In this document: piece after piece, positions 1 to 53,346 of the stretch
Layout: each line of letters starts with the position of its first letter
How positions within the stretch are numbered: position 1 is the stretch's first letter
Assembly (NCBI GenBank): GCA_001804285.1
Contig: MHFR01000016.1
Span: forward strand, 13,975-77,974
Length of the DNA: 64,000 nt
Origin: Candidatus Danuiimicrobium aquiferis
GTDB lineage: Bacteria > Omnitrophota > Omnitrophia > Omnitrophales > Danuiimicrobiaceae
Direction of reading: 5' to 3'
The notes under the pieces: model-generated
Told to the model about the DNA's origin: nothing
The model's input: the letters and a program-made list of their open reading frames with translations, nothing else
Database searches by the model: none
Program-made: the position numbers and the translations under genes

Positions 1-3000
1 GAGTTTTCCACGAATTTGTCGGCGAACGTGCGCGCGCCTTTTTGAAAGAACGGATTGACTGGGACATGAATATCGCGGAGCCGCTCGCCGCGCAGGATTG
101 GGTCAGCCGCATGAGCGTGTTAGTCGCCCGGCATAAGGATTTGATTGTGTCTTCGATTAAGGATATTGCTGATCTTGATGACACGCACAAAGTCACTTTG
201 TCTCAGCTTGGCACGGAATGGGAAAGCGAGAAACTGTATCCCGTCTTCGACTGGGGCAGTAGTCCGAATCCTTACCGGAGAGACCTCATTCCGTTTCTTG
301 ACGTGTTCGGAAAAGAAAAATTAAGGTTTCGATTTTGGCGGCATGCGTTGCGCGCTTTGGATGCCGCGAAGGAATCGTATCAATTGTTAGGTGATGTGAT
401 TTGGGAAAAGTGGGCAGAAAATTTAATCAGGGAAGCGACCGATGCCGGTGAGAAAACCAAAATCATCGAACGGATCATTCGCGAAGCAGAACCGCTTGAG
501 GTGTTGAAAACATCGATAGAGACAAGGGAGATGCGCGAAGAAATTAAAAAGTTAAGTATTTTTCAATGGCCGAGCGAAATCTTGTCAACGATCGTCAAAC
601 ATCGTAAGGGACAGTTTGATTTTTACGGCATGTCGGAGAAGAGCCGCTGGACGCGAATGGTTGAGACCTATAGTTTGAGAGCAACATTAATGAGTTTAGG
701 GCTTGGAGTTTTCTTTTTGTTAATAAATTATTTGCTAACGCTAAGTAATTTCGGCGGCAGTTTAGTGTTTCGAATGATTGGCGAGTGGAGCGGCCTCGTC
801 ACACTCGTTTTCGCGTTTATCTTTGTCATGACGGGGGGGATTGTGCGTTTCGTTTTTTCGACAATCCTTCAACGGGATTGGAAAAGTTTGATGGGGTGGG
901 ATTTTATTATTTTGATACAGCGCCAGGCCAAAGATGCCCAGGCGCTTCTTGACGGGTTGTATCTTTCGGGCGACATGGACCGCGCGCATGATGACTTGTT
1001 TCTTGCAAAAAAGGAATTTTGGACTGAAACAGCGAGGTTTTTGACCCTTTTAGGGTTTGTTGGGATATGGATCGTTCCGGTGTTTGCAATGCAATTAGGT
1101 CTCTATCCATCGATGATGGTATTCGGGCCGGTAGCGCTTGTTCTGCCATTTATTATTATTGGGCTTCAGTATGGTAAGTTTTCGGCGATGCGGAAAGCGA
1201 GTCAAAAACTTGAAGCGATTCGCCGTGCCGACGAAGAGGCATCCGTCAATACCTTTAACGATACGCATCGCTCCGAAGTTCGCTTCAATACGCCCAAAAC
1301 GGGGACAGGTTCTGGATCAACGAAATCAGAACCTGTCCCCGTTTTGGGTAGCCTTTATCAAAGCGCGCAAGTGTCCTCGCAGTTTTTTGCGAGGGCCGAA
1401 GCGCGCCAGCTTGTGCGGTCACCAGTTACGAATCAGCAGAGAACGCAAAGCCTGTCATTCCCGCATGCCTTAAGCGGGAATCTACAGCCTTGGATCCCCG
1501 CTTCCGCGGGGATGACACAAAAACTACGTGCCGAAGTTCGGGCGGCGAGGAAACCGAAAATTGATTCGCAGGAAAAAGTCATGACGGCGATCGATCCGAA
1601 TACGCACACCATTTTTATCGAAGCGCGGAAGGAAATACTGGATCAATTCGTAGTGAATTTGGCCAAGCTGTTATCGATTTCGGTAGAGGCGTTGCCGGTT
1701 GACATTCAAAATTTCTTGGCTGGTTCATCCAAGTCACTTGAATTGGGAAACCATTACTTTTTGCGCCGGCTTTCTTCCCCGGCGGACGGTGAACTTGCAC
1801 GGTTTGTTTTCACTTACCACATGAACAATCTGGCGTACGGCCAACAGGAAATATTTGATCAAAATAAGATTTGGGAAACTACGCAGACTACTTTTAAGTC
1901 GGTTATCCGTGGGACGATCGGGAAAACTCGAAAACTGGTTGAGACGGTTGAAAAGCCTATTTCCGAAAGGCAATTTTCAAGGTGGCTGACGGGAAAAACT
2001 TCCGGTGAAGCGGAGACGGTTCGAAGAATTCGGGAGATGACTGAAAAAGCGGGCGTTCTGAGCGCACGCGGCGATTTTGATCAGGCGGAACGTTATTTTT
2101 ATAAGGCTTTGCAATTGATCGAGCGGCATTCAACCGTCGAGGATTTAATTTATAAGTTGCAAGCGGGTGACGACACTATTCCGGTGTTACTTTCGGGCGA
2201 AGACGGCCTTGTCCGTGGCTATCTTCGGCAATTTATGAAAGCTCCGGAAGAAGCGATTGAGGATTTGGATCGTGTTGTGGAGATCTTGGATATTGTGGAA
2301 ACCGAGTTTGTCCGAAATCCCGTAATGGACGCGAGCGTTTGGGTGCCATCACTGATTGCTGCATATGTCGAACTCGCAAAGGCCTGCATTCATGATGACA
2401 GGGTTCCTCCGGGATTGAACGCCGTACGCCGTGCGTTCGAGTTGGTGGAGCAATTTTTGGAAATTACGGAAGCATCGCCGGAAATTGCGACTCTTTTTCA
2501 GGTTTTGCTCGATGGGATCGAATCCATGTGGACCGTGCCGGCTTTTGAGAACAATGCGCTTTCACGGGATGAATTTATTGATGAACCGGTTGAAGCGATT
2601 CGTATCGGAAATCAGATTTTATCCGAAGAGAAATTCCAGGCCCAAGTTCATCCTGAGGCGGTGAAAAAATTCCGCCAGCTCGAAAAAGACGTCAATGACC
2701 GGTTGAAACAGCTACAAATGCAGTACGAGGCGAATTCGTTTGATTGGCGCAATTGGCTTACGGGGCCGGATTTTAATTTAAATCAAGCGGTGACGTTGCT
2801 TGCCAGCGGTCCGGAAGCGCAATACGGGCTTTTTCACTATATGGTGCATCCGCAGTTCCGGCAGGTATCTGTTGTCGGACAACAGCATGCATTTCGCGCG
2901 ATGGAGAGCTTGGTCCGGTCAGAGAGGATCCTTTTGAGCAACGATTATATGTGGGAGCGTTTAGAGGCGCTTGAATATGTGACAGACCGTTATGCCATGA

Positions 3001-6000
3001 AAGAGTTCAGTGAATTTGCAGACGCTGTGAGAGAGTGGCGGCGTCCGCGAGCAAGCCATCCAGCCGGAATTGTGTCTCAGCAAGCAGCCAAACGTTCTGA
3101 GGATGTGTTGCCAATTCCTATCAAGAGGTCTGCTGCTTTGGTGCGGCAGACAATAGCGCTTTTAGAGCGAAAGGACGTGGATGTGTTGGCCCAGTCAATC
3201 GCGCATGCAGCTTCCTTGATTCCGGTGCGTACGCGTGCGGTCAATCAGGAGGATGTCAGAAAATGGACTCATCAGCTCGAATATCCAAAATTCAGAAATC
3301 AAGCGGAGGCCTTGCTTGTCGCGCGCGCAAAAGAAGGAGACTCAATCAAACAGATAGCATACGAAGCTACATCGGCTTTGGGTAGCGATGGAATTGCTGC
3401 ATCTATCGCTGCGATTTTTCTTGAGCTTGCGAAAGTGAACCAACGAATCACTATCCGTGCGCTGGTAAGTGTGAGCCAAAACCGGCAGCTGGGTCAAGCA
3501 TCTTTAAGGCTGCTTCGATGGTTTTTTGAAGATGACGAAGATCGTGTCCTTGCGATTTTGCGAGATTTTGCTTCTCCAAGCGAAGAAAATCCGCTGCTTC
3601 GCGAAAAAGCAGGTCTAGTGTTGGCTCAGTTCGTGCGTTCCGAAGCGCGAAATACCGATTTGTCGAAGGGTGATGCGGGAGCGGGTAAGGAAGGGGCTGA
3701 TGAATTGGTCGTTCAAATTGCTCGGCTCGCACAAGAAATCCGTAATAGGATAGAGATATTTATAGTAGAGGATACGAATTTTGCATTTCAGGAGCAAGAG
3801 CTGGAGGCCATTCGCAATGCGATGATTCTACTTGAAAAACTTGAAAGACAATCTGGATGGAAATTAAAAAAATTGCCGCCGAAAACGGAAGTAGTGACAA
3901 GAAAATTTAATGAATTAACAGAACAAGTTAAGAAATACCGGATAGCACTTTTGGGAAGCACAGCGGATGAACAAGTAGCTATGGCTTTGCCCGGAAGCAA
4001 GTTGAGCATAGAGCAGCTGCCATGGGGGAATGGGTTTATTGCGCAAAGGTTAGAAGCGTTTAAGGGAACGCTACAAAAAAGAATGAACACAATTCGCGAA
4101 GCGACTCGGATTATCGGGGTTGGCTATTCCAGCCTTTATGGGTTTGTGAGAGACCATCCCGATGCGGCGGAGTTTTATCATATCCGACAACCAGTCCTCT
4201 CTCCTCGGAGGGGAAAGCCTTCCAACCGGGCCGAAGCGCGCCACTCTGAAAATAGTTCCAAGGAATTATTAACCAAAGCGCGCAAGAGTCCTCGCGATGC
4301 ACAAGAGGATGGAGCGAGGGCCGAAGTTCGCTTCGAAAAAGATAGTACAAAAGAGATGCTTTATCAAGGCGAACGAGTGTCTTCGATACGGTCCAATATG
4401 GATGTATCGAGGGCCGAAGTGCGCGCGAAGGGGAAAAGCGGGCAGCTTTTAGGAATCGTGGTCCGAGGCGAAGACTCACCTCTTTGGGGGCAGTTTCAAG
4501 CCGCTGTTATCGGGGCGCTTCAAGTGAAGAGAGTTCTTGAAATCACACCGGCCAATCTTGAAATTTTTCATTATTCGCCACTTGATGGTGAAATCGGGGT
4601 TCTGTCAGTGACGAACAACCACAAACAACACAACGATTCTGGCAGTGTTGCGTTGGTGACATATAGTCTGAGAGTTGAGCGGGCGAAGCATGCCTCTGCA
4701 AAAGGCGGAAGCCGTAAAATTCTTAAAATCTCAGGACAAGACACCGGTTCGAATTATCAGAGCCTCGGTATGATGCGCCTCTTTTACGCTTATTTAAGCG
4801 CGTTCCATGGCATCAATCGTTTTGTCATTGACGTTAATACCGCACCCCGATTTCTCAAACGGTTAAAAGCGCAAGGTTTCATCCTTTCAATCCGCCAAAA
4901 AGGTTTATTCACCACCGTTGATTTGAATCATGAAAAATTAGCCGCCGTACTCCGTGTGTCTAGAGCTGAAGCCCGAGATAAGGGTGTTAAAACAGCCAAA
5001 AAGAGAATGAATGAAGAGGCCAAACTTCGCCGTCGCGCGGGGCGTTTGCGCAGGAATATTTGGAACTGGATTGCGGAAAATCCGGTTGTGTTTAAACGGA
5101 CACGACAGAAATATGTTACCAATGCACTCGGCCGGTTCAGGAAATACATCGACGAAACGCACGTAAGATTTGAACGGAAATGGCTCGATTATTTAATCAA
5201 AAAAGAGGCAGAGGTGACTCGTGTTTCATTGCCGGATCAACGGATACTCAGAATGATTTTTATTCCTCTTCAATCATTTATTCCGTTTTTCGAAACGCAT
5301 CAATATCCGGACGGTGATACCAGAGGTTTCGGTTTTTTGGAGGTTAATAAACGCAGCATTGGTTCTGGATTTTATTCTTATTCCCGGACTACCGGGGATA
5401 TGATTATCGGATTTCGGATCTTTCAGGAATTCCGCGAAAAAAATAACAAAGAAGTTTTTAAGGCGTTTTTGAATGCGCTTCTTCGTAAATTTCATCCGAA
5501 AAGATTTGTTGTGCCGAACCAGCAAATACATAATGCTGACACATCGCCGGCAGCCACTCTTTTTTATCTTAAGAGTGGTTTTATCCCTTACGGCGTTTCC
5601 CATAAAATACAAGCATCGGTAGACATGCGTTTTGTGCAACTGATGGAAGGACAGCGCTTGAGTTTGAAAACGATCCGTTCTTTGCACGATCGAATAGAAA
5701 GACATATTACCTTCACCGAAAACCCTTGGCTTTATGAAGGCGTTTGGGTTTCTCCGTTGATAAAACCCAAGAACGGACGATCGGAAGTTCACTCGCAGCC
5801 TCTTATTGATCAGAATGATGCTGCGAGTACAGCTTGGCCCTTAACGGCGTCGACTGTGTCTCCGCCAAGGGCTGAAGCGCGGATTTTTCATTCCGGTATT
5901 TTAGACCGTGGATTTCAAACAGAACTTAACGGGAACCAAGTCTATATGAAGGGACTCGACCGCGTCGCGTCACATCTCCTTTTGCCGAAGCGGTCCGAAG

Positions 6001-9000
6001 CGCGGGCGGACCGGTATGGGATCGATTGGGATGCAGTCGCGCGCGGGCTGTCGACGCAGCTTAGGAACATTGAAACGTTTGTTGTTGAGGCGACCACGCG
6101 TAAAGAATGGGCCGAAGTCACGCGTGAAGTGGAAAAACTGATCAACACGTTCAAAAAAGGCGTGCAGTTTGCGCCAACGGAGGTATTAAAAGGCCCTTCC
6201 TATGAGCAACTTTTCTTTCGGCTAAACCGTGTGGTCAAAATAGTGGCCGAAGAAACGGCAAAGATGCTTGTATCCCGCATTAACTCGGATGTGCTTATCA
6301 TTCTGGCGCAGCTTTCGCTTATAGTATTTCTTTTCGCCTTGGTAAGTCTTCCTGTCGCGATCGGTTTGTCTGCGCTGCTTTCCATTGGTTCGGTTTTGGC
6401 TCTGACCGGTATCTTGCGCGATCAAAATATGCGTAAGGTAACAGCCTCATGGCTTGCTCAAAAGCAGCGGGACATCGACGATCTGGCCGCGAACGGGCGG
6501 AAAGAAGACGCTTTCAGAACTGAACGTTCCGAAGCGCGGACGGAAACAAGCGGACAACCCCAAAAGTTTTGGGTGCCACACCGTGTGTTGATTGTCGAAG
6601 ACGATGATGTTTCTGCGCGTTTTTATAAAGCACAAATAAGGGCGTTTTGGAATTTGAACGAAGATCAAATTGACATCGTCTCTTCTGGAGATGAGGCAGT
6701 TTTGCGTTTTTATCCTGAATATCCGGCGACCTATGATCTTCTCATACTAGATCATGATTTGCCGGGCGAAATCCATGGTAAGGATGTTTTAGCCCTGGCG
6801 CGGCTCAAATCTAAACAAACAATGATTGTCTTTAACTCAGCCAACAGTGTTGCGAGACAATCGGTAAGAGATTCCGGGCTGGCCGATCTGGTTGTGCCCG
6901 GAAAGATCGGCGTTGAAAAAGACTTGTCGGATCCAAAATCAGATATCAGCGTTTGGCTCCGTGAAACAAACAGCATTGCTTCCTCTCGGCGGTCCGAAGC
7001 ACGAAGTGAATTCCCATTAAATCAAGAAGAAGAACGGATTTTGCGCGAATTGGGAATGTCTGTTGATGAAAAAACAGGAAAACTTTTTTATATCGATAGA
7101 ACCGGTGAACCGAGAGTCGAACTCGAGGCAGATGTGTCAATTGTGCGGCACGGTGAAACTTTACTGATTGAACAAAGCAGAAAAGATGGGCTTCAGCGTT
7201 TTCAGGGAGCATTAGATGGCCCGGAGAATCAGCTCTCGGAAGAAGGAAAACGGCAGGCCGAAGAATCGGCATTGAAATTATATCAAGAGCTTATTGAAGA
7301 ACGGAAGCTTGATCCCCGTGAACTTATTCTTGTTTCAAGTCCATTGACAAGAGTGTTGGATACGCTGCAGGCTTTTATTGATCTTGTTAAGGAAAGAACC
7401 GGATATGAACTAAAAATAACGCGTGATGAAGAGCTCGAGCGCCTTGCTATCGAAATCAGTTTTGGCGCCTATGAAAATTTAACCGAACCGGAAATTCGCG
7501 CCATGGGCGAAAAAGATTATCAACTTGCCCGGGCGTTTCGAAACGGCCATGCGCTGGTTCGATTTCCGGCGGGAGAGAAACCGGGCGAAAGTTTCGTCCA
7601 GGATTTAGTCAGAGCGTATTATTTAACGAAATATATCAATGAACATTACCGCGGGAAACATGTTGTTCTTGGAAGCCACGGGACGACTTCTGGCGCGATG
7701 CGAGTCATTCAAAAAGATCCGGCCATGTTTAATGCCGATGGATTTGTTGATTGGCGAACGAATATGCTAAAGCCGGCTCAGGTCTTCCATTTATCGAAAA
7801 TGAGCCGCCGCGCTCCGTCTCAAAAAGGCTGGAGCGATAAAGAACTATTGGGATTAGCCAGAAGAGCGTGGAATCTCGGCTATCAGCCGGAAGAAAAATC
7901 CGAGCGGCCGGTTCCTGATGTTATGGGATTGATCGCGAAACAATTGGCCGTCGAAGATAATCAAAAAACCCGCCGACCGGAAGCACCTAACGAAATTGCC
8001 AGAGCCAATTCATCGGAGGGCATTCAACGACAGATTAAAGCAATTAATGATAGTCTGGTTAAGTTGAGGCGTATGGAACTTGACTTACTCACCCGGCTGC
8101 GTTATCCCACTGAACACACTTTTCCCTACTGGCGGAATATTTCGGAGAAAGAGTTGCGCGCAGAATTGGAAGCAGTCAGAGCACAAATTGCAAAATTAGA
8201 CACAACAGCAAATGCTCTGAGGGATAAACTCGGTCGTTCCGAAGTTCGCAACATTAATAATAGTTCCGGGTTCCGAGTTTCTGGTTCCGAGTTAAATTCA
8301 CAATTAGGAACTCGGGACTCGAAACTCAAAACTTCCGCCGAAGGCGGACGTGCCGAAGTGCGGCAGGTGAAACGGCTTGTCAATTTTAATCGCATTGTTG
8401 ATTATCTTAAGAAACAAAAAATATCACAACAGGCGCTTCATTATTTAAACGAAATGCGTTTTGATTTTCAAATTCATATGACCGACGAAAGTAATGTTTT
8501 GAAACGCTTTGATTTCTCTGCATTGGATGAGGAGGATCGTCTGGTTTTACAGGAAGCTCTGAACAAATGGGTAGAAATATTTCAACAATGCAAAGCTTAT
8601 ATTAATGGAGAGGCGTGGGTTAGATATTCTCGAGTCCTCGAGTTTCTTTTGGCGGAATATGGTGGCTTAGAGAAACTGAGAGGAAAAAAAGTGGTTGAGC
8701 TCGGGCCATCTGACCGGGATGGGCTCTTGCGGTTTTTGAAAGATTCCGGGATTGATTCAATAGGATACGATGTGAATCCTGCGGTTCAAAATGATTTAGT
8801 GAAACCGGCGGATTTTTTTCGGGTGGCTGAGGATTATGCGCCAAACACGGTCGAAGTTGTATTTAGTGTTGATTCATTAACGGTGCCGTATATGATCCAA
8901 GCGAGCGGATATAGCCGCAATGAAGTTTATCGCACGGAAAACATGAATCGCTTGATGAAAGATTTGAACAGAATGATGACCTCAACAGGAACAGTGATTT

Positions 9001-12000
9001 TTGAGATGGAGCCGGTTCAAGATTTGGATACGTCGGGTTTTGCAATCATTGAACAACCATTAATGGACCTTCGTGGATTTTGGGTTTTCAAAATACAACG
9101 TGCCGAAGTTCGCAACCTTGCAGACCAAAAAGGGGACAGGCATATGACTCCTGTTGAGCAATTGCCTGTCCCCTTTTTGGCTAATCAAGGCGAACGAGTG
9201 TCCTCGCAGCCTTTTGCGAGGGCCGAAGCGCGCGCGGAGAGTCAGCCATTTTTTGTCGAACGGAAGATGCCGTTCGTTGAGATGGTGCAAGCGCTGCCGG
9301 AACTCTCTGAAGAATTGAAAGCCCAATTTGATTATGCGCGTGCAATTTATTTTGGGGATAAAAATCGTGCGGCTGATTTATGGAAATCGCTGGCTGAACA
9401 TGGATATAAGCTCATCGGAGGGAAATGGTACGCCATGGTGTTTTCTGTCAAAATAACGCTGGCCGGGGCGAGTATTGAGCCACTTCAACCAGACAGCTTC
9501 TTCTCGCATCTTCAGGTGGTGTTGGGCCATGAACTCAAGCATCTGGATCCTGCTTTGGCCATGAAGCTGTATGAGCATCTCGGATACTTTTTTTCAAATA
9601 TGAAAGTTGATCCGAGAATTCTCCCGACGGTATTTGATCTGGATTTGAGCCGCGCCTACTATTCCGAAGGCACACTTCCGGACGGAAAAGTTTTAACGCA
9701 TGTTATATTCCCTAACACCATTAACAGAAGCGTGTCAACGTCCGATTATGTGAGCGAATTTTTCTTTGTGGATGGTGTGTTCTATGCGTATGGAGCCATG
9801 CATGACTTTTGGTCGAATGCTGAGTTGGAAGAAAGCTTTTCAGTGCTTGAAGCAGAAAATGGAAATGCGATTGGACGTGGCGTTCCTCACCTTGCCCGTG
9901 ATGTATATGAAGCGCGTCTCAAAACCATTTTGAAAATTCTGCCGGGCCGGGTGGTGCGAGTTCCGTCGGCACAATTCTCTCTGAAAGCAGACGGGCACAG
10001 CGCGCTTATTTTTTATCTCAAACTCGGGTTTCGCCCGCGGCCTTTGCCGGAGGATATTGACTTGAGAAGCAAAGTTGATGACTGGATGGCAAAGCTTGAT
10101 AGCGATCCAAAACTCCGTATTCCCGAGCGTGAAATCGAACGGTTTTTATTGCGCATGGGAGAAAAAAACCTGTATTACATTCCGCCGGAAATGTTGAGAA
10201 GGGCCGAAGCGCGCTTGAATTCGGTTAATTCAACCACTGCCCTATCGCAACTATTAAATAAAAAGGATTTATTGAATGAAGCGATAGGACTGTCATGGCT
10301 TCCGATAAATATGTTTTCACATAGTCAATGGAAAGCCATGGCTGCTTCGGGCGATGCATTGAGGCATCGCTCCGAGCTGCGAGCGGGGTTACCCGAATTG
10401 AATGGAGAAATTCCGGGCGAGTTTACGCCGAAACAAGTTGCGCGGAAAATCCGGCAATTTTCAAAACAAGCTTTTGAGGAGAAGGAGCGCGGTAAAAAGT
10501 TCAACCTTGTTTTGACACAAACGGAAGAACAGCTTCCGGAAGAAGTGACGGTGACGGCGAGAAATTTAGATGCGCGTATGAGACGAGTGAACCGATTTTT
10601 AGCAGGATTTCCGAAGGGATACAGGTTTAAACTTTACTTCGTCAACGCTCAAATTCCCGTATTGATAGTGTCTCAAGCTCAAGAAATTCCAGCTGGCGCT
10701 ATTGTCAAAGCAGACGTTTTAATGAATAAGTTAAAACATGCGAATGATGCACTCGTCAATATCATGATGACATTAAATCAAAGTAAAAATCTAGTGACGA
10801 AAGGAAATTTAACGCATCTTCGAAGGCAACTCGCAATTGTGAGACAAATATATGATGACCAAGAAGGAATGTTAAAAAAAGAATTTCAGAAAGCCTATGC
10901 AAATGCAGATAAAACTGACTTTTTGCTTATGTTTATGTTGGCTGGTGCGCTCAAAGCTGTGGCGCACATTGTCGATCAAGGAAGCCCGAAATTACCCCAA
11001 CCTGTGAATTTTACAAATTTGTTGCAGTCATTAATGCCCATGACGAAAGCATTCGATTATCCGATACAGGTTACGGATGACACCTCAATTTTAAATCGCT
11101 CCGAAGTACGACTTATGCAACCGATGATGGAAAATGCAGCTGAAATGAAAACCGCTCGACCGAGCGCGACTCAACCGAGCAGTGTGGAACAATTGGAAAA
11201 TGCGAGGGATTATTTGAATCCGGCTTTAAGTTCGAGCCGGGTGACGCGTTTCGCTAAATCGGGAATTGAAGCGCCAACAACATCTTCGACGGCTACAAGG
11301 CGTGTTTCAACAGAAATTAATCGTTCTTCGACCCCACCAAGACGCTCTTTAACTTCATCCATATCTGTACGAAGCGCACCCAAGCCTTCAGCAACAACCC
11401 GAAAATCACTTTTGAGATCTTCAACTAATACACCAACTTCACGTGCGGTAAAATCTGACGTCATGGCAATAACACCTTCTCTTTCTGCGGGAGACCGAAA
11501 TTTAGCAGACAAACCGGAAGTTGTCAATATAAATCAAGATCATAATAATATTGAGTTTAAATCAACGGTAGAGATTCCCACATTGCCTCGCAATGACGAA
11601 CGATTGATCTCTGATTCCTCAATTAACCAAGCTGCCGATCATGTGGCGCTTGCGATTGCGCCGGAATCGGTTTCGTTGAATCCGGGAGACGAAATCCAGC
11701 CGGCGGACGTTCAGCGGGAACTGGTGATATTAAAGGAAGTTGATGTTGATGTGTTCAGTGAAAAACTTCGCGCTGCAGTCATTAAAAAATTGAAAGAACT
11801 CAATCCACAGGTTGACGTTGAAATTGTTGATCCTGAAATCGTGAAACAGTTAACGGGAAACTGGATCGACTTACTCGCGGAAAAATTGAGCGGCAAATTA
11901 TCGATTGCATTTGAAATGAGCGGTCAGTTGACGGTGGATAAAATAGTTGAAGCGTTTCAAGCTGAAGGCTTTCGCGGACGGATCAAAAATTTGATTCTGA

Positions 12001-12464
12001 CCGGTGAGCGCGTTAATTTGACTCCGGATCAGCGGAAAACGATTGGGCTGCCGGTGATGTTGAGAAATCAAGTGGATTTCAGAAGATTAAATCCGGAACG
12101 GGTGCTGAGTCAAAGCGTTCTTCCGGTTGTGAGTAAAAACCCCGAATTTCAATTAGGCCCGAACAATCCCGGCTTTTTGGAAGTTGGGGTCGACACCAAC
12201 CGGGTTGATTCCGATCCGTATCTTGAGCTAACAGAATCAGTGCTTCAAATTGTAATCGGTTTATTAGCTGCAGAGAAAATTAAAAAAGTGAAAGATCTCA
12301 CAATCGAGCAAATCAGAGCCGAGCTTTTGAAGGATTTATTTATCGGATACGGAAGCCGGGAAGATATTGTCCGCATTGATCAAGGGCGGCTGATTATTTC
12401 AAGGTTGGCGCTGAGGCTCTTTTTGGAACACGAAATGACGAAACGGGTGGAGATGTCGGCGTAA
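1..12464 (+). CDS. Giant multidomain membrane protein, 5'-partial (open to the window edge). It has N-terminal and mid-protein transmembrane clusters, a CheY-like receiver domain, a histidine-phosphatase (RHG...SHG) domain and a class-I methyltransferase-like segment.
   Basis: A single stop-free frame runs from nt 3 to 12464 (more than 4150 codons), which cannot occur by chance at this GC. Its amino-acid composition is protein-like over almost its whole length. Recognisable motifs: receiver 'VLIVEDD...LLILDHDLPG...K', 'RHGET' and 'GSHGT', 'VVELGPSDRDG'. Hydrophobic helices lie at about nt 680-1190 and 6280-6420. The frame stays open upstream of the track's TTG at 42, so the gene continues beyond the window. 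Confidence 0.7.
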   Translation, partial: VFHEFVGERARAFLKERIDWDMNIAEPLAAQDWVSRMSVLVARHKDLIVSSIKDIADLDDTHKVTLSQLGTEWESEKLYPVFDWGSSPNPYRRDLIPFLDVFGKEKLRFRFWRHALRALDAAKESYQLLGDVIWEKWAENLIREATDAGEKTKIIERIIREAEPLEVLKTSIETREMREEIKKLSIFQWPSEILSTIVKHRKGQFDFYGMSEKSRWTRMVETYSLRATLMSLGLGVFFLLINYLLTLSNFGGSLVFRMIGEWSGLVTLVFAFIFVMTGGIVRFVFSTILQRDWKSLMGWDFIILIQRQAKDAQALLDGLYLSGDMDRAHDDLFLAKKEFWTETARFLTLLGFVGIWIVPVFAMQLGLYPSMMVFGPVALVLPFIIIGLQYGKFSAMRKASQKLEAIRRADEEASVNTFNDTHRSEVRFNTPKTGTGSGSTKSEPVPVLGSLYQSAQVSSQFFARAEARQLVRSPVTNQQRTQSLSFPHALSGNLQPWIPASAGMTQKLRAEVRAARKPKIDSQEKVMTAIDPNTHTIFIEARKEILDQFVVNLAKLLSISVEALPVDIQNFLAGSSKSLELGNHYFLRRLSSPADGELARFVFTYHMNNLAYGQQEIFDQNKIWETTQTTFKSVIRGTIGKTRKLVETVEKPISERQFSRWLTGKTSGEAETVRRIREMTEKAGVLSARGDFDQAERYFYKALQLIERHSTVEDLIYKLQAGDDTIPVLLSGEDGLVRGYLRQFMKAPEEAIEDLDRVVEILDIVETEFVRNPVMDASVWVPSLIAAYVELAKACIHDDRVPPGLNAVRRAFELVEQFLEITEASPEIATLFQVLLDGIESMWTVPAFENNALSRDEFIDEPVEAIRIGNQILSEEKFQAQVHPEAVKKFRQLEKDVNDRLKQLQMQYEANSFDWRNWLTGPDFNLNQAVTLLASGPEAQYGLFHYMVHPQFRQVSVVGQQHAFRAMESLVRSERILLSNDYMWERLEALEYVTDRYAMKEFSEFADAVREWRRPRASHPAGIVSQQAAKRSEDVLPIPIKRSAALVRQTIALLERKDVDVLAQSIAHAASLIPVRTRAVNQEDVRKWTHQLEYPKFRNQAEALLVARAKEGDSIKQIAYEATSALGSDGIAASIAAIFLELAKVNQRITIRALVSVSQNRQLGQASLRLLRWFFEDDEDRVLAILRDFASPSEENPLLREKAGLVLAQFVRSEARNTDLSKGDAGAGKEGADELVVQIARLAQEIRNRIEIFIVEDTNFAFQEQELEAIRNAMILLEKLERQSGWKLKKLPPKTEVVTRKFNELTEQVKKYRIALLGSTADEQVAMALPGSKLSIEQLPWGNGFIAQRLEAFKGTLQKRMNTIREATRIIGVGYSSLYGFVRDHPDAAEFYHIRQPVLSPRRGKPSNRAEARHSENSSKELLTKARKSPRDAQEDGARAEVRFEKDSTKEMLYQGERVSSIRSNMDVSRAEVRAKGKSGQLLGIVVRGEDSPLWGQFQAAVIGALQVKRVLEITPANLEIFHYSPLDGEIGVLSVTNNHKQHNDSGSVALVTYSLRVERAKHASAKGGSRKILKISGQDTGSNYQSLGMMRLFYAYLSAFHGINRFVIDVNTAPRFLKRLKAQGFILSIRQKGLFTTVDLNHEKLAAVLRVSRAEARDKGVKTAKKRMNEEAKLRRRAGRLRRNIWNWIAENPVVFKRTRQKYVTNALGRFRKYIDETHVRFERKWLDYLIKKEAEVTRVSLPDQRILRMIFIPLQSFIPFFETHQYPDGDTRGFGFLEVNKRSIGSGFYSYSRTTGDMIIGFRIFQEFREKNNKEVFKAFLNALLRKFHPKRFVVPNQQIHNADTSPAATLFYLKSGFIPYGVSHKIQASVDMRFVQLMEGQRLSLKTIRSLHDRIERHITFTENPWLYEGVWVSPLIKPKNGRSEVHSQPLIDQNDAASTAWPLTASTVSPPRAEARIFHSGILDRGFQTELNGNQVYMKGLDRVASHLLLPKRSEARADRYGIDWDAVARGLSTQLRNIETFVVEATTRKEWAEVTREVEKLINTFKKGVQFAPTEVLKGPSYEQLFFRLNRVVKIVAEETAKMLVSRINSDVLIILAQLSLIVFLFALVSLPVAIGLSALLSIGSVLALTGILRDQNMRKVTASWLAQKQRDIDDLAANGRKEDAFRTERSEARTETSGQPQKFWVPHRVLIVEDDDVSARFYKAQIRAFWNLNEDQIDIVSSGDEAVLRFYPEYPATYDLLILDHDLPGEIHGKDVLALARLKSKQTMIVFNSANSVARQSVRDSGLADLVVPGKIGVEKDLSDPKSDISVWLRETNSIASSRRSEARSEFPLNQEEERILRELGMSVDEKTGKLFYIDRTGEPRVELEADVSIVRHGETLLIEQSRKDGLQRFQGALDGPENQLSEEGKRQAEESALKLYQELIEERKLDPRELILVSSPLTRVLDTLQAFIDLVKERTGYELKITRDEELERLAIEISFGAYENLTEPEIRAMGEKDYQLARAFRNGHALVRFPAGEKPGESFVQDLVRAYYLTKYINEHYRGKHVVLGSHGTTSGAMRVIQKDPAMFNADGFVDWRTNMLKPAQVFHLSKMSRRAPSQKGWSDKELLGLARRAWNLGYQPEEKSERPVPDVMGLIAKQLAVEDNQKTRRPEAPNEIARANSSEGIQRQIKAINDSLVKLRRMELDLLTRLRYPTEHTFPYWRNISEKELRAELEAVRAQIAKLDTTANALRDKLGRSEVRNINNSSGFRVSGSELNSQLGTRDSKLKTSAEGGRAEVRQVKRLVNFNRIVDYLKKQKISQQALHYLNEMRFDFQIHMTDESNVLKRFDFSALDEEDRLVLQEALNKWVEIFQQCKAYINGEAWVRYSRVLEFLLAEYGGLEKLRGKKVVELGPSDRDGLLRFLKDSGIDSIGYDVNPAVQNDLVKPADFFRVAEDYAPNTVEVVFSVDSLTVPYMIQASGYSRNEVYRTENMNRLMKDLNRMMTSTGTVIFEMEPVQDLDTSGFAIIEQPLMDLRGFWVFKIQRAEVRNLADQKGDRHMTPVEQLPVPFLANQGERVSSQPFARAEARAESQPFFVERKMPFVEMVQALPELSEELKAQFDYARAIYFGDKNRAADLWKSLAEHGYKLIGGKWYAMVFSVKITLAGASIEPLQPDSFFSHLQVVLGHELKHLDPALAMKLYEHLGYFFSNMKVDPRILPTVFDLDLSRAYYSEGTLPDGKVLTHVIFPNTINRSVSTSDYVSEFFFVDGVFYAYGAMHDFWSNAELEESFSVLEAENGNAIGRGVPHLARDVYEARLKTILKILPGRVVRVPSAQFSLKADGHSALIFYLKLGFRPRPLPEDIDLRSKVDDWMAKLDSDPKLRIPEREIERFLLRMGEKNLYYIPPEMLRRAEARLNSVNSTTALSQLLNKKDLLNEAIGLSWLPINMFSHSQWKAMAASGDALRHRSELRAGLPELNGEIPGEFTPKQVARKIRQFSKQAFEEKERGKKFNLVLTQTEEQLPEEVTVTARNLDARMRRVNRFLAGFPKGYRFKLYFVNAQIPVLIVSQAQEIPAGAIVKADVLMNKLKHANDALVNIMMTLNQSKNLVTKGNLTHLRRQLAIVRQIYDDQEGMLKKEFQKAYANADKTDFLLMFMLAGALKAVAHIVDQGSPKLPQPVNFTNLLQSLMPMTKAFDYPIQVTDDTSILNRSEVRLMQPMMENAAEMKTARPSATQPSSVEQLENARDYLNPALSSSRVTRFAKSGIEAPTTSSTATRRVSTEINRSSTPPRRSLTSSISVRSAPKPSATTRKSLLRSSTNTPTSRAVKSDVMAITPSLSAGDRNLADKPEVVNINQDHNNIEFKSTVEIPTLPRNDERLISDSSINQAADHVALAIAPESVSLNPGDEIQPADVQRELVILKEVDVDVFSEKLRAAVIKKLKELNPQVDVEIVDPEIVKQLTGNWIDLLAEKLSGKLSIAFEMSGQLTVDKIVEAFQAEGFRGRIKNLILTGERVNLTPDQRKTIGLPVMLRNQVDFRRLNPERVLSQSVLPVVSKNPEFQLGPNNPGFLEVGVDTNRVDSDPYLELTESVLQIVIGLLAAEKIKKVKDLTIEQIRAELLKDLFIGYGSREDIVRIDQGRLIISRLALRLFLEHEMTKRVEMSA
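1268..1406. repeat. In-frame palindromic insert module bounded by ccgaagttcgc and ggccgaagcgcgc. It has a 20-bp stem (cccaaaacggggacagg / cctgtccccgttttggg) and a gcgcgcaagtgtcctcgc / gcgagggccgaagcgcgc hairpin.
   Basis: Inverted repeats read directly from the sequence; translated as ...RSEVR...ARAEAR... Confidence 0.7.
1452..1519. repeat. MITE family B copy (tgtcattcccgc...gcgggaat / ggatccccg...cggggatgaca) lying in-frame inside the giant ORF.
   Basis: Near-identical to the intergenic copy at 17495-17567. Translated in-frame as SLSFPHALSGNLQPWIPASAGMTQK. Confidence 0.75.
4228..4426. repeat. Composite in-frame repeat module: three tandem ggccgaag[ct]gcgc units, each with a caa[ag]gcg..gtcctcgc hairpin arm.
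   Basis: Sequence repeats; translated RAEAR...ARAEVR...SRAEVR. Confidence 0.65.
6526..6575. repeat. In-frame module ccgaagcgcgg + ccccaaaagttttggg hairpin, immediately before the receiver domain.
   Basis: Shares the motif and the palindrome with the module at 1268. Confidence 0.55.
8235..8364. repeat. In-frame module bounded by cgttccgaagttcgc and gtgccgaagtgcgg, with ccgagtt / aactcgg and ccgccgaaggcgg palindromes.
   Basis: Sequence repeats; translated RSEVR...RAEVR. Confidence 0.6.
9098..9237. repeat. In-frame module with the same architecture as 1268-1406: ccgaagttcgc, a ccaaaaaggggacaggc / gcctgtcccctttttgg stem, then gtcctcgc..gcgagggccgaagcgcgc.
   Basis: Aligns along its whole length with the module at 1268-1406. 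Confidence 0.7.
10201..10290. repeat. In-frame module gggccgaagcgcgc + ttgaattcggttaattcaa palindrome + ccctatcgc / gcgataggac hairpin.
   Basis: Read directly from the sequence. Confidence 0.5.
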
Positions 12465-12484: not shown

Positions 12485-12823
12485 GAAGAAAAAAGAATGC
12501 TCGCTGCTCGGCACTGACTTACATTGAAAATATTTAAAAGTTTTCTTATTTCGGTAGTCAGTACCGCCCTTGAGCTATTCAATAAAATCTTTCTTAAGGA
12601 AGCTCAATGGGCGGACATATCTGCGCTCCAGTGGGTGCTCGATAACTCGCTTCGAGCATTCTTTTTTCTTCATCTGTTCCGCCTCTCCGCCATCATAGAA
12701 GGTAAAATTTGTGAAAAAGGAAGCCGTACAACAAGTTATCTATCCACGAGTTCGGAAAAAGCGGAGGGAATTCACTCATTAGCTTTTTACGCTGTCTGAG
12801 TGGGAGATAACTTGTTGTACGGC
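12485..12823. other. Structured intergenic region with two long perfect inverted-repeat pairs: 12485-12503 pairs with 12655-12673 (19 bp), and 12716-12734 pairs with 12805-12823 (19 bp).
   Basis: Reverse-complement matches read from the sequence. The second stem is followed by cttttag. Candidate terminator, ncRNA or MITE pair. Confidence 0.5.
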
Positions 12824-12891: not shown

Positions 12892-12921
12892 TTGACATTT
12901 ACTCTATAAGTTTGATATAAT
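12892..12921 (+). promoter_or_regulatory. Sigma70-like promoter for rplM-rpsI: TTGACA, 18-nt spacer, TATAAT.
   Basis: Exact consensus hexamers with an 18-nt spacer, about 75 nt upstream of rplM. Confidence 0.6.
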
Positions 12922-17494: not shown

Positions 17495-17567
17495 TGTCAT
17501 TCCCGTAAGCTTTAAGCGGGAATCCAGAAAAACATGGATCCCCGATAAAAACATTCGGGGATGACAA
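17495..17567. repeat. MITE family B copy (two gtcattcccg..cgggaat / ggatccccg..cggggatgaca hairpins)
   Basis: Inverted repeats in the sequence; intergenic between rnc and argC. Confidence 0.75.
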
Positions 17568-20181: not shown

Positions 20182-20209
20182 TGTCATCCCCGCGAAAGCG
20201 GGAATGACA
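20182..20209. repeat. MITE family B single hairpin (tgtcatccccgcgaaagcgggaatgaca)
   Basis: Palindrome in the sequence. Confidence 0.65.
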
Positions 20210-21127: not shown

Positions 21128-21320
21128 GGTCACTAGTCACCGGACACTGGTTACTATGTTCTGTTGACATTTAGTGTTCTCATTCCTTCTCCCTTTTGGG
21201 GAGAAGGTTAGGATGAGGGGGAATTTCAATCCCTCACCCTATCCCTCTCCCACAGGGAGAGGGGAAAGTATGTAAATATCAGCAGAACATAGTGAATAAA
21301 TGAGAAACCAGTGACTGGTG
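21128..21320. repeat. 193-bp palindromic element with 35-bp terminal inverted repeats (ggtcactagtcaccggacactggttactatgttctg / cagaacatagtga...ccagtgactggtg) enclosing ccttctccc/gggagaagg and ccctctccc/gggagaggg hairpins
   Basis: Inverted repeats read from the sequence; lies between argB and argD. Confidence 0.7.
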
Positions 21321-23640: not shown

Positions 23641-23746
23641 GATCCCCGCATGTTTTTAGCGGGGAACCATTGTTCTGGATTCCCGCCTCCCTGGAAATAC
23701 AGGGCCGGCCCTCGCTTTACCGAGGGAAGGCATGCGGGAATGACAA
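23641..23746. repeat. MITE family B full-length copy, in opposite orientation to the copies at 27769 and 32232
   Basis: The reverse complement aligns with 27769-27878. Confidence 0.75.
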
Positions 23747-27768: not shown

Positions 27769-27878
27769 TGTCATCCCCGCATGTTTTCCCTCGGTAAGGC
27801 GAGGGCCGGCCCTGTATTTCCAGGGAGGCGGGGATCTAAGGGGCAATAGATTCCCGACAAAAGCTTTCGGGAATGACA
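27769..27878. repeat. MITE family B full-length copy
   Basis: Hairpin modules gtcatccccgc / gcgggga.. and ggattcccg / cgggaatgaca. Confidence 0.75.
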
Positions 27879-32187: not shown

Positions 32188-32231
32188 GAGGAGTAGAGAG
32201 TGAAGAGGGCAGAGAAGAGAGTATCTTTTCG

Positions 32232-32340
32232 TGTCATCCCCGCATGTTTCCCTTGGGAAAGAAAGGGCCGGCCCCAGTTTTTCCGGGGTAGGCGGGGATC
32301 TACGATTCTGGATTCCCGACAAAAACATTCGGGAATGACA
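32232..32340. repeat. MITE family B full-length copy overlapping the 5' end of the next ORF
   Basis: Near-identical to 27769-27878. Confidence 0.75.
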
Positions 32341-40926: not shown

Positions 40927-42600
40927 ATGAGCAAATTCGGCAGACGTTTTAAAATGAATCTTATGAATCATTGGGTGAAGCTTGCGATCACTCTTTCGGT
41001 CGTGATTATGATAGGGCTCTCCATTTGGGGAATGGCTTCTCTGGAAAGCTATTACCGGAACATCACGCTTGCGACGATGCCGATTAATATGCTGATGATG
41101 GCGGTCAATGCCGTCGTTTTTGTCTTCTTATATACCATGGTGATGCAGGGCGGTTTTTCCAAGATAGATACGAAAAGTGTCAATGCCAAGGAAGTGAATA
41201 TTAAATTCAGCGACGTTGTCGGCATGGACGAAGCAAAGGAAGAAGCATGGGAAGTTGTTCAGCTAATCAAAGATCATTCCAAGCTGAAAAAAATTGGGGG
41301 AAAGATTCTTCGGGGAATTCTAATGTTGGGGCCTCCGGGATGCGGGAAAACGTATCTTGCCAAAGCAATTGCGACCGAAGCGGGCCTGCCGTTTCTTTCA
41401 ATGTCAGCCAGTGAATTTGTTGAGGTTTTTGTCGGAGTCGGCGCTTCCCGCGTGAGAAAATTATTTAAAAAAGCGCGCCAACTTGCTTATGGTTTCGGCG
41501 GCTGCATCATTTTCGTTGATGAATTGGATGCCGTTGGGCGTAATCGAGCGTTTAATCAATTTGGAGGATCCGAAACCAATACGACACTCAATCAATTGCT
41601 TGTGGGGATGGACGGACTCGACAGCCAGCAGGAAAATGTTATTGTGATTGGGGCGACAAACGCGCCTGAAGACTCGTTAGACGCGGCACTTCTCCGTCCC
41701 GGGCGATTTGACCGGAAGGTTTATGTGGTGAGGCCGAATTTAGAAGACCGCGCGAAAATGTTTGCGTATTACTTGGAGAAAGTAAAACACGATTCCTCGA
41801 TTGATGTTGCCGTCTTAGCACGCAAAGCCATCGGGAAATCTCCGGCGGAAATTGAGAATATTGTGAAAGAATCCGCTTTGATTTCAGTCCGAAAAGGCCT
41901 AGATGTGATTACGTATAAAGAAATTACGGAAGCAGTCGAGCGGATCGAGCTTGGAATTAAGAATAAAATTAAAATGAATCCACGCGAGCGGGAAATGGTG
42001 GCATATCATGAAACCGGTCATTTGATGGTGACTTATTTGCTACATCCGCGCGACGATGTGTTCAAAGCGTCGATTATCCCAAGGCGAAGTTCTCTGGGGG
42101 TTGTTCACCCGACACCGCGCGAAGAATGGTTTGTGCATGATCGTGAGGCGATTTCAGCGGATATTAAGGTTTGTGTTGCGAGCTATGTCGCTGAAAGGCT
42201 TAAATTTAATACGACCACGAGCGGTGTTTCAGCAGATTTTCAACATGCGATGAGGATTGCGCACCAGATGGTTTGGAAGCTCGGGATGGGGCCATCCGGT
42301 TATATTGGGGATTATTCCTCTATTCCCGAAAACCAGCTTGCTGAAACGATCAAAACCAAACTAAACGATGACACCAATAAAATCCTGAAGGATTGTATGG
42401 ATGAGTGCGAAGCGCTCCTGAAGAAAGAAAATGAGATTTTTGAAAGGTTCGCGCACGAGCTTTTAGTCAAAGATGAGCTTGAATATGATGAAATTGAAGC
42501 GATTTTTAATGAGTACGGCAAGTCAAATCCGAGAATTTTTGGCGGGAAAGGGACCAGTTTTGATAAGGGGCCCGGAACCGATTCTCAGCAAAAGACGTAG
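40927..42600 (+). CDS. FtsH-like AAA+ zinc metalloprotease (single N-terminal transmembrane region)
   Basis: Walker A GPPGCGKT, Walker [10 protein letters not shown], and an HETGH zinc motif. Confidence 0.85.
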
Positions 42601-42615: not shown

Positions 42616-42654
42616 TAAAAAACGCGGAGCATGACCTGCTCCGCGTTTTTTTTA
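42616..42654 (+). terminator. Rho-independent terminator (A-tract, cgcggagca/tgctccgcg stem, T9)
   Basis: aaaaaacgcggagcatgacctgctccgcgttttttttt directly after the ftsH-like stop codon. Confidence 0.8.
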
Positions 42655-44336: not shown

Positions 44337-44488
44337 CTGGGTTGTGCCTGTTTAGCGTTTTGAAGTTGACGCGCCTCCCTCACCCTAACCCTCTCCCTGA
44401 GGGAGAGGGCAGGGGTGAGGGAGATTTGTTAATCACTTCAAAATGCTAAACTAATACACTGGGTTAGGGATGAGAAATCCGGGCTAAT
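44222..44488. repeat. Composite repeat (family C). Perfect 19-bp terminal inverted repeats ttagcccggatttctcatc / gatgagaaatccgggctaa enclose a family A element (44351-44452) and a 103-bp inner unit (44222-44324).
   Basis: Perfect reverse-complement arms at 44222-44240 and 44470-44488. Confidence 0.7.
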
Positions 44489-47904: not shown

Positions 47905-48372
47905 ATGAAAATTTTTGATTATCAAACCCGTGTTCGATATGCCGAAACCGACCAAATGCATGTGAGCTATTATGCCAATTACTTCGTTTGGTTTGAGGCG
48001 GCCCGAACAGAATACTTTCGCGCGATCGGGCTGGTGTATGCTGATTTTGAAAAACAGGGGCTATTCCTTCCGGTAGCCGAAGCACATTGCCGGTATCTTG
48101 GGCCGAGCTGCTATGACGATGCGCTTGTGGTTCGTACGGTTGTGAGTCAGATGCGCCAAAGGTCGCTCCGGTTCGAGTATCAAATCTTTAAAAATCTTCC
48201 TCAAGTCGCCAATCCTTTTGAAGGTGCAAAGCCGATTGCGGCAGGTTATACTGTCCACGTGTTTAGCGATGCCAACTTAAAGCCGGCTCGTATTCCGGAT
48301 GCGCTTCGATCGAAGGTTGAGTTGGCCAGCTTGGATATGTCACAATCAGTCAGGCGATCAAATTTCCGATAG
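47905..48372 (+). CDS. Acyl-CoA thioesterase (YbgC/4HBT hot-dog family)
   Basis: MKIFDYQTRVRYAETDQMHVSYYANYFVWFEAARTEYF, typical of 4HBT proteins. Confidence 0.75.
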   Translation: MKIFDYQTRVRYAETDQMHVSYYANYFVWFEAARTEYFRAIGLVYADFEKQGLFLPVAEAHCRYLGPSCYDDALVVRTVVSQMRQRSLRFEYQIFKNLPQVANPFEGAKPIAAGYTVHVFSDANLKPARIPDALRSKVELASLDMSQSVRRSNFR

Positions 48373-48379
48373 AGGCCGC

Positions 48380-53164: not shown

Positions 53165-53238
53165 CGGGACGTGGCTCAGCCCGGTAGAGCACACCCTTGG
53201 GGTGGGTGGGGTCGAGAGTTCAAATCTCTCCGTCCCGA
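53165..53238 (+). tRNA. tRNA-Pro (anticodon GGG)
   Basis: Folded by hand. Acceptor cgggacg/cgtcccg, D-stem gctc/gagc, anticodon stem caccc/gggtg with loop ttGGGgt, T-arm gagag-ttcaaat-ctctc, discriminator A. CCA is not encoded. Confidence 0.85.
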
Positions 53239-53252
53239 GACGCAAATAGTGA

Positions 53253-53303: not shown

Positions 53304-53346
53304 GCCATCTGCTACGTAAATTGCTACGTAGAAAAAGGAGAAAACG

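Follow-up and report, generated by a model that had tools for sequence, protein, structure and literature searches.

In-frame palindromic DNA and a polyprotein-like architecture in a giant gene of Candidatus Danuiimicrobium aquiferis

In viral polyproteins, doubled sites bracket small dispensable spacer peptides, and the vls cassettes of Borrelia are flanked by 17-bp direct repeats that lie in frame. The attC sites of integrons are structured elements of 57-141 nt with the core RYYYAAC...GTTRRRY. Two further systems bear on the locus described here: the Rickettsia palindromic elements (RPEs), which insert in frame into open reading frames (ORFs) (PMC10969869), and the MARTX toxins, whose cleavage takes place at Leu residues in unstructured stretches between effectors (PMC2900308). 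In this study, we analysed a 64-kb stretch of the genome of Candidatus Danuiimicrobium aquiferis (assembly GCA_001804285.1, contig MHFR01000016.1, positions 13,975-77,974), hereafter the window, to which all coordinates refer unless another locus is named. The window opens with a giant ORF of 4140 codons (42-12464, + strand), in whose 4140-residue product a five-residue peptide, R-[A/S]-E-[A/V]-R, recurs at what we call junctions between modules. The locus is real and unusual; it combines in-frame palindromic elements with a polyprotein-like architecture, with frozen synonymous positions as an oddity. Our preferred reading, to which we would give a little less than an even chance, is that the gene encodes a polyprotein-like precursor whose modules would be released by endoproteolysis at the junction, the spacers between doubled junctions being discarded as peptides.

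The peptide R[AS]E[AV]R has 18 copies in the window, all in the frame of the giant ORF; the other five frames and the remaining 51.5 kb (12465-64000) contain none. Amino-acid composition predicts 0.047 copies, and 5000 shuffles gave at most three. At the DNA level, the core CCGAAGYKCG occurs 14 times against 0.79 expected, every copy lying on the + strand within the giant ORF. An earlier, sequence-only reading of the same DNA listed 18 sites with a constant R-[A/S]-E-[A/V]-R translation in one codon phase, and all of them are present within a few bases of where it placed them, 18 of 18 in the frame of the giant ORF. However, it described them as about 18 palindromic modules, whereas we find 18 short junctions, with eight pairs enclosing spacers, and only four or five of the spacers are strongly hairpin-forming.

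Of the 15 nucleotides of the junction, eight never vary, and the wobble of codon 2 makes a ninth that hardly does. The wobbles of codons 1, 4 and 5 are almost random, the first base of codon 1 switches only between AGR and CGN with Arg kept, and the two remaining variable positions are Ala/Ser and Ala/Val swaps. Because variation is confined in this way, the junction bears, to judge from its codons, the signature of a site conserved as a peptide. The sequence flanking the five residues is variable and mostly hydrophilic, and it is unique at most sites. The proposal that R-x-E-x-R is itself a mobile palindrome fares poorly against these observations: the flanks are unique and the variation is of the conserved-peptide type, the motif is missing from the intergenic repeat copies and from the rest of the window, and in a distant homologue a comparable junction peptide is encoded by freely varying codons, without palindromes. 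We also rejected the idea that the motif forms a self-complementary mini-hairpin, as its arms fail to pair in most variants.

Divided at the motif, the protein falls into 11 large pieces (150-700 residues) and eight short ones (25-51 residues). Along the + strand, RSEVR at 1269-1283 (CGCTCCGAAGTTCGC) is the upstream copy of pair A, RAEAR at 1392-1406 (AGGGCCGAAGCGCGC) serves both as the downstream copy of A and as the upstream copy of B, and RAEVR at 1527-1541 is the downstream copy of B. A single RSEAR stands at 3636-3650. It is followed by the tandem triple at 4227-4424, correctly recognised before, in which RAEAR (4227-4241), RAEVR (4317-4331) and RAEVR (4410-4424) surround two homologous spacers, C and D. 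A single RAEAR at 4962-4976 (AGAGCTGAAGCCCGA) lies between GNAT-like modules 1 and 2. Pair E consists of RAEAR at 5868-5882 and RSEAR at 5991-6005, and single RSEAR copies are found at 6525-6539, 15 residues ahead of the receiver domain, and at 6990-7004, between the receiver and histidine phosphatase modules. RSEVR at 8235-8249 and RAEVR at 8349-8363 form pair F, RAEVR at 9099-9113 and RAEAR at 9219-9233 form pair G, and RAEAR at 10200-10214 forms pair H with a degenerate 19th junction, RSELR (CGCTCCGAGCTGCGA), at 10368-10382; a further single RSEVR occupies 11097-11111. Paired copies differ at 2-5 of the 15 positions. The extra copy formerly placed at 5983 is really a 9-nt partial duplicate, CCGAAGCGG, at 5985: within 5985-6005 a local 9-nt duplication (CCGAAGCGG followed by TCCGAAGCGCGG) sets a partial core, out of phase and read P-K-R, directly before the RSEAR junction, and this looks like the footprint of slippage at a junction.

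The giant protein has a beads-on-a-string organisation with at least 13 modules, few of which are recognisable. Its N-terminal module has four transmembrane (TM) segments, and a second membrane module has two TM segments near residue 2100. A GNAT-like homology block covers residues 1665-1899, and three GNAT-like modules are mutually related (FYLKxGFxP). The domain search returned a histidine phosphatase domain at residues 2367-2551; a receiver domain at residues 2182-2273 and a methyltransferase-like stretch at residues 2864-2946 are weak. Other modules are helical or of tetratricopeptide repeat (TPR) type, with one TPR, and there is a helix-turn-helix (HTH)-like stretch. A lone HExxH occurs at residue 3163, and the structure model of this HExxH/GNAT-like module was too poor to use (predicted local distance difference test score, pLDDT, 48). 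No junction falls inside any detected domain or homology block. The earlier observation that several copies sit at domain boundaries holds for the receiver, the histidine phosphatase, the methyltransferase-like stretch and the GNAT-like block, all of which are flanked and never interrupted.

Codon usage for Arg, Ala, Ser, Glu and Val in the giant ORF matches that of 14 housekeeping genes of the window, and GC content at the three codon positions is 0.555/0.384/0.457 versus 0.542/0.372/0.478 in the housekeeping genes. An independent metagenome scaffold (L001, the contig that encodes the database entry P0001) reproduces 16.6 kb at 99.98% identity, the sole difference being a run of N, and by this identity it is from the same population as the window. 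The setting includes rplM-rpsI, an AsmA-like gene, RNase III, arginine and lysine biosynthesis, uvrA, ftsH and hrcA-grpE-dnaJ. Because of its native codon usage, the independent scaffold and this ordinary chromosomal setting, the giant ORF is a real, native gene. An assembly artefact was rejected, since two assemblies agree and the codon usage is native, and so was an operon with internal starts, as start codons and ribosome-binding sites after the junctions are not consistent.

The eight doubled junctions, A to H, enclose spacers of 25-51 codons (75-153 nt), all of them multiples of three in length. Their 282 codons contain no in-frame stop, against 14 and 14 stops in the other two frames (P about 6e-7). 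Because of the open frame and the divisible lengths, the spacers are, on the evidence of their sequence, translated and selected to stay open, and otherwise unconstrained. Obligatory RNA excision or ribosomal bypass of the spacers was rejected; neither needs stop-free spacers divisible by three, yet eight of eight are of this kind.

Structure is unevenly distributed among the spacers. Spacer A (1284-1391, 36 codons) contains a 22-bp perfect palindrome at 1293-1348 and a helix, P3, at about 1371-1397, and spacer G (9114-9218, 35 codons) contains an 18-bp perfect palindrome at 9125-9180 and P3 at about 9198-9224. Both long perfect stems had been noticed in the sequence-only reading, as had the fact that the two regions can be aligned end to end, here 1260-1415 with 9090-9242 over the whole length. 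Spacer F (8250-8348, 33 codons) forms a long hairpin at about 8262-8326 with six G.U pairs, and spacer H (10215-10367, 51 codons) forms two, at about 10241-10288 and 10292-10342. The large hairpin is absent from C (4242-4316, 25 codons) and D (4332-4409, 26 codons), B (1407-1526, 40 codons) holds a copy of a repetitive extragenic palindromic (REP)-like element, and E (5883-5990, 36 codons) has no significant structure and stands outside the spacer family defined below. In a shuffle test, fold z-scores were -9.4 for A (1269-1406), -8.0 for G (9099-9233), -4.5 for F (8235-8363) and -4.0 for H (10195-10344); D was marginal (-2.7), and B (-1.6), C (-1.4) and E (+1.0) were not significant. When the 64 kb were scanned in sliding 100-nt segments, the only coding outliers were four junction-adjacent segments of the giant gene, and every remaining outlier was intergenic.

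A HMMER search with residues 1199-2166 against 1.84 billion representative proteins retrieved only the protein itself (P0001) and one distant homologue, P0002. The latter is a giant protein of 2949 aa that bears a signal peptide and is encoded between two nuo operons (L002 7819-16668, GCA_964543965.1). Its GNAT-like module is homologous to that of the window protein (27% identity, E 1e-15), and the C-termini of the two proteins have no similarity. P0002 carries the peptide [GA]ARL[AS] eight times (residues 537, 982, 1203, 1530, 2048, 2223, 2296 and 2562), a count reached by 0 of 20000 shuffles, and two of the copies flank the homologous GNAT-like module. On this evidence [GA]ARL[AS] is a second, different junction code. 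Its Arg, Leu and Ala codons vary freely, the DNA is not conserved, and the P0002 gene has no notable hairpins or palindromes.

The metagenome locus L059, from an organism that shares the REP-like family of the window, encodes another giant protein (3-5357, - strand; at least 1785 aa, reaching the contig end). Its N-terminal domain is homologous to that of P0002, and its HTH-like module resembles window residues 1313-1373. This ORF contains a perfect RSEAR (AGGTCCGAAGCGCGT) at the domain boundary where a Gly/Asn-rich linker gives way to a HAD-like module, as well as RAEIR and, 60 nt after a hairpin of the type found in spacer A, NAEAR (AACGCTGAAGCGCGC). As judged from these RSEAR, NAEAR and RAEIR copies, the junction peptide therefore follows the lineage rather than one protein. 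Three palindromes, the A-type hairpin among them, lie in frame in the same ORF, at residues of about 404-420, 455-480 and 560-582, and the third is a GTAG-type REP read as VGANPRVRP...GQTHGSAPT. By their sequences, giant genes in this lineage generally tolerate palindromes in frame.

In the polyprotein-like reading, the junction would be recognised by a factor that is sequence-specific and acts on the protein, most simply an endopeptidase that would cut the precursor into modules. Recognition by such a factor is suggested by the strictness of the junction, by the different but also strict peptide of the homologue and by the reuse of R-x-E-x-R in a second protein of a relative, and a motif that follows the lineage fits a shared trans-acting factor. 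The spacers between doubled sites would be disposable and released as small peptides, which would explain their tolerance of repeat DNA: palindromic DNA may colonise them in frame, and the motif would be a boundary signal and not a mobile element. Like the MARTX toxins, gingipain/HagA proteins and viral polyproteins, the product of the giant gene is a very large single ORF product with heterologous enzyme and regulator modules. As in processed polyproteins, a short conserved site lies between the modules, the 18 junctions standing outside detected domains with variable hydrophilic flanks. The doubled junctions bracket short segments, as do the sites around viral spacer peptides, and the G-A-R-L-[A/S] of P0002 resembles a Leu-then-small-residue site as in MARTX. 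Unlike MARTX, whose cysteine protease domain cuts after Leu, the window protein has no protease domain in cis (Pfam/NCBIfam) and lacks both RTX repeats and a secretion signal; its TM segments number 4+2, and its modules are cytoplasmic in type. A literature search on giant bacterial polyproteins with linker motifs returned nothing relevant.

Several points weigh against this reading. That the protein is cut at all is something we purely infer, and an uncut giant protein with conserved linkers would fit the sequence equally well. No protease gene adjoins the giant gene; a Trypsin_2 peptidase lies 38 kb off with no evidence of a link, and Pfam/NCBIfam detected no peptidase domain in the whole giant protein or in ten separate modules, the lone HExxH at residue 3163 being the sole hint of one. 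Protein-pattern scans of 185,579 species-representative genomes and JGI metagenomes found no orthologue, and the similarity to P0002 is restricted to one module type. Moreover, the codons of the junction are more uniform than the peptide demands. Codon 2 is GCC (9), GCT (2) or TCC (7) and never GCG, though GCG makes up 41-51% of Ala codons, and the Glu codon is GAA in 18 of 18. The pair GCY-GAA is used at 11 of 11 Ala-containing junctions versus 33% of Ala-Glu pairs outside the motif, and TCC-GAA at 7 of 7 versus 12% of Ser-Glu pairs (joint probability about 2e-12). As far as codon counts can tell, peptide selection alone does not explain the frozen wobble of codon 2 (C/T) and the constant GAA. 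Finally, the helices of the spacer family R1 (below), which include junction codons and show compensatory changes, suggest a function at the nucleic-acid level, as seen in five paralogues.

Because the two wobbles are frozen and CCGAAG is not unusual elsewhere, an extra nucleotide-level constraint, read from these codons, therefore acts on YCY-GAA-G beyond the peptide. Plain CCGAAG has 20 copies elsewhere in the window, all without insertions. Its frequency there is as expected, so that CCGAAG as an avoided or nuclease-target hexamer was rejected.

Among the alternatives, the one that survives best, although we regard it as rather unlikely, is that the junction is an ordinary linker repeat: a convenient linker or helix cap spread by duplication of modules within the gene and not recognised by anything, with the hairpins as neutral passengers. 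Duplication within the gene is indeed seen in the three GNAT-like modules and in the tandem spacers C and D, the frozen wobbles could be what is left of identity by descent, and an enzyme that recognises the junction was not found by Pfam/NCBIfam on the giant protein. However, at most junctions the two modules that meet are unrelated and the flanks are unique, so these junctions were not carried along by module duplication. Strict identity of five residues at 18 sites, with the other wobbles randomised, is also unexpected for passive linkers, and the equally strict but different peptide in the homologue, together with the same peptide in the giant protein of a relative, points to recognition.

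The remaining alternatives turn on the hairpin DNA of the spacers, which sequence comparison has shown to be of three kinds: a private spacer family, R1, a terminator-like palindrome and a REP-like element. Family R1 comprises spacers A, C, D, F and G. Spacers A, G, D and C align, and a covariance model built on these four picks up F, which was not in the training set (24.8 bits, E 2e-5); it has no significant match elsewhere in the window or in 100 metagenome loci, L059 among them. In helix P1, GYKCGC (codons 4-5 at the upstream junction) pairs with GCGMRC or GCGGAC, which immediately precedes the downstream junction; among the pair types, UU/AA was seen twice and CG/CG and UU/GA once each. 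For its 3' arm, helix P3 uses codon 1 and the first part of codon 2 of the downstream junction, always AGG GCC. In the R1 alignment, 97.9% of cells pair, compared with 48% or less in slid controls, and seven pairs change on both sides, as is reached by only 4 of 500 shuffles. Helix P3 and the F hairpin contain G.U pairs and gain 4-6 kcal/mol in stability on the sense strand, and one U.G pair is invariant. In five paralogues, these features are suggestive of selection on structure but do not prove it.

Compared with C and D, spacers A and G hold an extra 50-56 nt consisting of the perfect palindromes CCCAAAACGGGGACAGGTTCTG/... and CCAAAAAGGGGACAGGCA/..., so that the large hairpin is an indel among paralogous spacers. 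Compensatory changes distinguish the stems of A and G, and the two 5' arms do not share a reading frame (PKTGTG versus QKGDRH); therefore, it is the palindrome that is conserved and not the peptide. The pattern of this palindrome, AAAANGGGGACAGG...CCTGTCCCCNTTTT, recurs in more than 116 metagenome contigs of 37% to 69% GC (L012-L127; soils, sediments and groundwater) and has recognisable sub-families, e.g., ...GGCTACTTTTT... and GAGGTCCTAAAAAACGGGGACAGGACC.... Its copies typically have an A-tract before the stem and a T-tract after it, as in bidirectional terminators, and they are mostly terminator-like and intergenic, with 6 of 119 copies internal to long ORFs among the matches listed. In L116 (898-961 and 3016-3079) the palindrome lies in frame in two tandem genes for PMT-like/TPR membrane proteins, where the inserts read KKGTGYFF...KSSLSPFF and one copy has a duplicated arm, and in L111 (942-994) it lies in frame in a DegT-type aminotransferase. 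By these examples, in-frame colonisation by the A/G palindrome occurs in other organisms too. A literature search by hairpin sequence returned nothing relevant, and the family seems undescribed in the literature searched.

Spacer B contains, at 1452-1517, an in-frame, stop-free and full copy of the nested palindrome TGTCATTCCCG...CGGGGATGACA. The family to which it belongs has the ends TGTCAT[TC]CCCG...CGGG[GA]ATGACA, between which lie nested hairpins that vary in length. Five intergenic regions of the window contain copies (17496-17566, 20183-20209, 23642-23745, 27770-27878 and 32233-32340), or about one per 10 kb, and a copy with about 85% similarity is present in L059 at 8342-8440. In the intergenic copy closest to it in sequence (17494), an in-frame TAA stands in place of the CAT of spacer B. 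Another intergenic palindrome family, CCCTCACCCTAACCCTCTCCC/GGGAGAGGG..., is found at 21185-21264, 44375-44423 and about 17782, and the region 44340-44460 folds with a z-score of -11.2.

The comparison with Rickettsia that the sequence-only reading had drawn can thus be assigned to one part of the gene. Inside the spacers it stands, as they are in frame and stop-free and hold hairpins of intergenic families (at least three spacer hairpins belong to families that are otherwise intergenic); for the R-x-E-x-R motif it does not. As with RPEs and intragenic miniature inverted-repeat transposable elements (ERIC, BOX and the terminator-like SPRITE type), the spacer B element and the A/G hairpins lie in an ORF, in frame and without stops, and they belong to dispersed multi-copy palindrome families, which is not true of R-x-E-x-R or R1. 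Unlike RPEs, the insertions are found only in the doubled-junction spacers of one giant gene and are not scattered over metabolic genes, and the recurring R-x-E-x-R belongs to none of the palindromic elements. RPE-type behaviour is therefore, in sequence terms, real in the giant gene but confined to its junction spacers; the comparison concerns behaviour only, and homology to RPEs is not expected, the organism being unrelated. The TGTCAT[TC]CCCG...CGGGGATGACA family resembles REPs and bacterial interspersed mosaic elements in that it is a short palindrome, nested and imperfect, with copies in at least five intergenic regions. Unlike REPs associated with REP-associated tyrosine transposases (RAYTs), it starts with TGTCAT, without the typical 5' GTAG, and no RAYT or TnpA gene was found in the 64-kb window.

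These elements invite an explanation at the DNA level, which we nevertheless consider improbable. The 15-nt junction, with its core CCGAAG, would be a target for in-frame recombination or transposition; R1 spacers, and possibly whole modules, would be cassettes inserted at or excised between direct junction copies, by helix-aided replication slippage, a site-specific recombinase or a single-strand transposase of the IS200/IS605 or RAYT type, and the single junctions would be empty sites or excision scars. Such a role would account for a core frozen at two wobbles beyond coding needs, and since all copies are direct and in one phase, exchange would stay in frame. R1 spacers resemble IS200/IS605-derived elements in their subterminal hairpins, in having CCGAAG on both sides and in their strand-biased helices, which are stabler on the sense strand as at the ends of single-strand transposons; P1 starts right after the left core and P3 ends right before the right core. 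In A, C, D and G the downstream junction is always AGGGCCGAAG and part of helix P3, as for the end of an element, whereas the upstream junctions of family members resemble single sites. Helix P1 would bring the repeats together, as it joins the bases after the upstream core to a hexamer near the downstream core. The R1 copies lie 3-8 kb apart between unrelated modules, and in L059 an A-type hairpin lies 60 nt upstream of GCTGAAGCGCGC.

However, unlike IS200/IS605 elements, R1 has no copies outside the gene in the window or in the 100 metagenome loci, L059 included, and the same holds for the junction; the plain CCGAAG hexamers elsewhere carry no insertions. No recombinase or transposase lies beside the gene, the only integrase being in a tRNA-Pro island 41 kb away, and the independent assembly of the same population (L001) has no indel at spacers C-H. 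The Arg at position 1 is kept across AGR/CGN switches, which argues for peptide selection, the junctions of P0002 show no DNA conservation, and the differences between paired copies indicate that these are not recent target duplications. The locus is like attC sites and cassette boundaries in having a short conserved DNA site at each boundary, some with a structured element (75-153 nt here). Unlike an integron, the array is one continuous reading frame, its modules are unrelated domains and not variants of one cassette, and the spacer ends read GTTCGC...GCGAAC, the opposite order to attC. An adjacent integron integrase was not found, the window containing only the tyrosine recombinase at 53347-54372 beside tRNA-Pro.

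A layer of RNA structure had also been suggested, and we consider it quite improbable as the main explanation. The spacers would be structured mRNA at module boundaries, acting through ribosome slowing that aids co-translational folding, through RNase processing, or through attenuation of transcription inside the gene that only coupled translation would overcome. The suggestion gained some support in that a helix arrangement with compensatory changes and sense-strand G.U pairs is common to five spacers: the pairing frequency and the seven double-sided changes of the R1 alignment, the invariant U.G pair, the sense-strand bias of P3 and the F hairpin, and the z-scores of -4 to -9.4 of four spacers are all of the kind expected of an RNA. 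The A and G hairpins also have the A-tract/stem/T-tract shape of the bidirectional terminators of this genome, e.g., at 42617-42651. However, no structure accompanies ten or eleven of the junctions, the folds of spacers B, C and E fall short of significance, and the junctions of P0002 lack any structure. With only 4-5 paralogues aligned, covariation can mirror shared ancestry, and the stems of A and G, being perfect palindromes, are as stable on one strand as on the other and belong to a family that is mostly intergenic elsewhere. Rfam 15 gave no family above threshold, the only matches being generic miRNA-precursor hairpins at 1293-1347, 8266-8336 and 9125-9180.

A very doubtful last possibility is that the junction works at both levels, as the peptide cleavage code of a polyprotein that is an operon in one ORF and, through its frozen CCGAAG core, as the DNA crossover point or target of an in-frame cassette system. 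The codes would then differ by lineage, R-x-E-x-R here and G-A-R-L-A/S in P0002, and spacers, possibly whole modules, would be inserted, excised and shuffled between junctions with the frame unbroken; the giant genes of the lineage would be self-assembling, re-arrangeable arrays of modules.

If the junction is a processing site, as in the polyprotein-like reading, the locus would provide a bacterial counterpart to viral polyproteins, with one 460-kDa precursor and a lineage-specific five-residue code. A receiver, a histidine phosphatase, a methyltransferase, acetyltransferase-like proteins and an HTH protein, which usually come from separate genes, would be made together, and this would offer a handle on the role of the many unexplained giant genes of uncultured bacteria. 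Whether or not this holds, the locus shows in-frame palindromic colonisation, best known in Rickettsia, in a free-living, deeply branching environmental lineage as well, channelled into defined safe havens between doubled junctions. One terminator-like palindrome is also common to very diverse bacteria and enters ORFs in several of them.

Other features of the window were recorded in the course of this work. The giant gene is followed by a structured intergenic sequence at 12561-12820 and by a perfect sigma-70 promoter at 12892-12921 (TTGACA, 18 nt, TATAAT, with the extended -10 TG), 76 nt upstream of rplM, whose nearest relatives in an L13-anchored search for syntenic regions were ribosomal L13 proteins of 44-46% identity. 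The peptidase-like genes of the window are only three, namely the 261-aa Trypsin_2 peptidase (50349-51131, - strand), a TPR protein with a matrixin-like (Peptidase_M10) stretch (48299-50248, + strand) and FtsH (40927-42597), the first two being 38 kb from the giant gene. The region 53165-61527 contains tRNA-Pro(GGG) followed by the tyrosine integrase (53347-54372), a Schlafen/AlbA_2-HATPase_c_4 protein and a type I restriction-modification system (hsdR, hsdM and hsdS), and its gene content indicates that it is probably an integrated island. At 32200-32340, the listed GTG start of a 1582-aa ORF lies upstream of a REP-like copy; as judged from the sequence, this ORF more likely starts at a Met about 45 codons downstream of the GTG, where a signal-like hydrophobic stretch follows.

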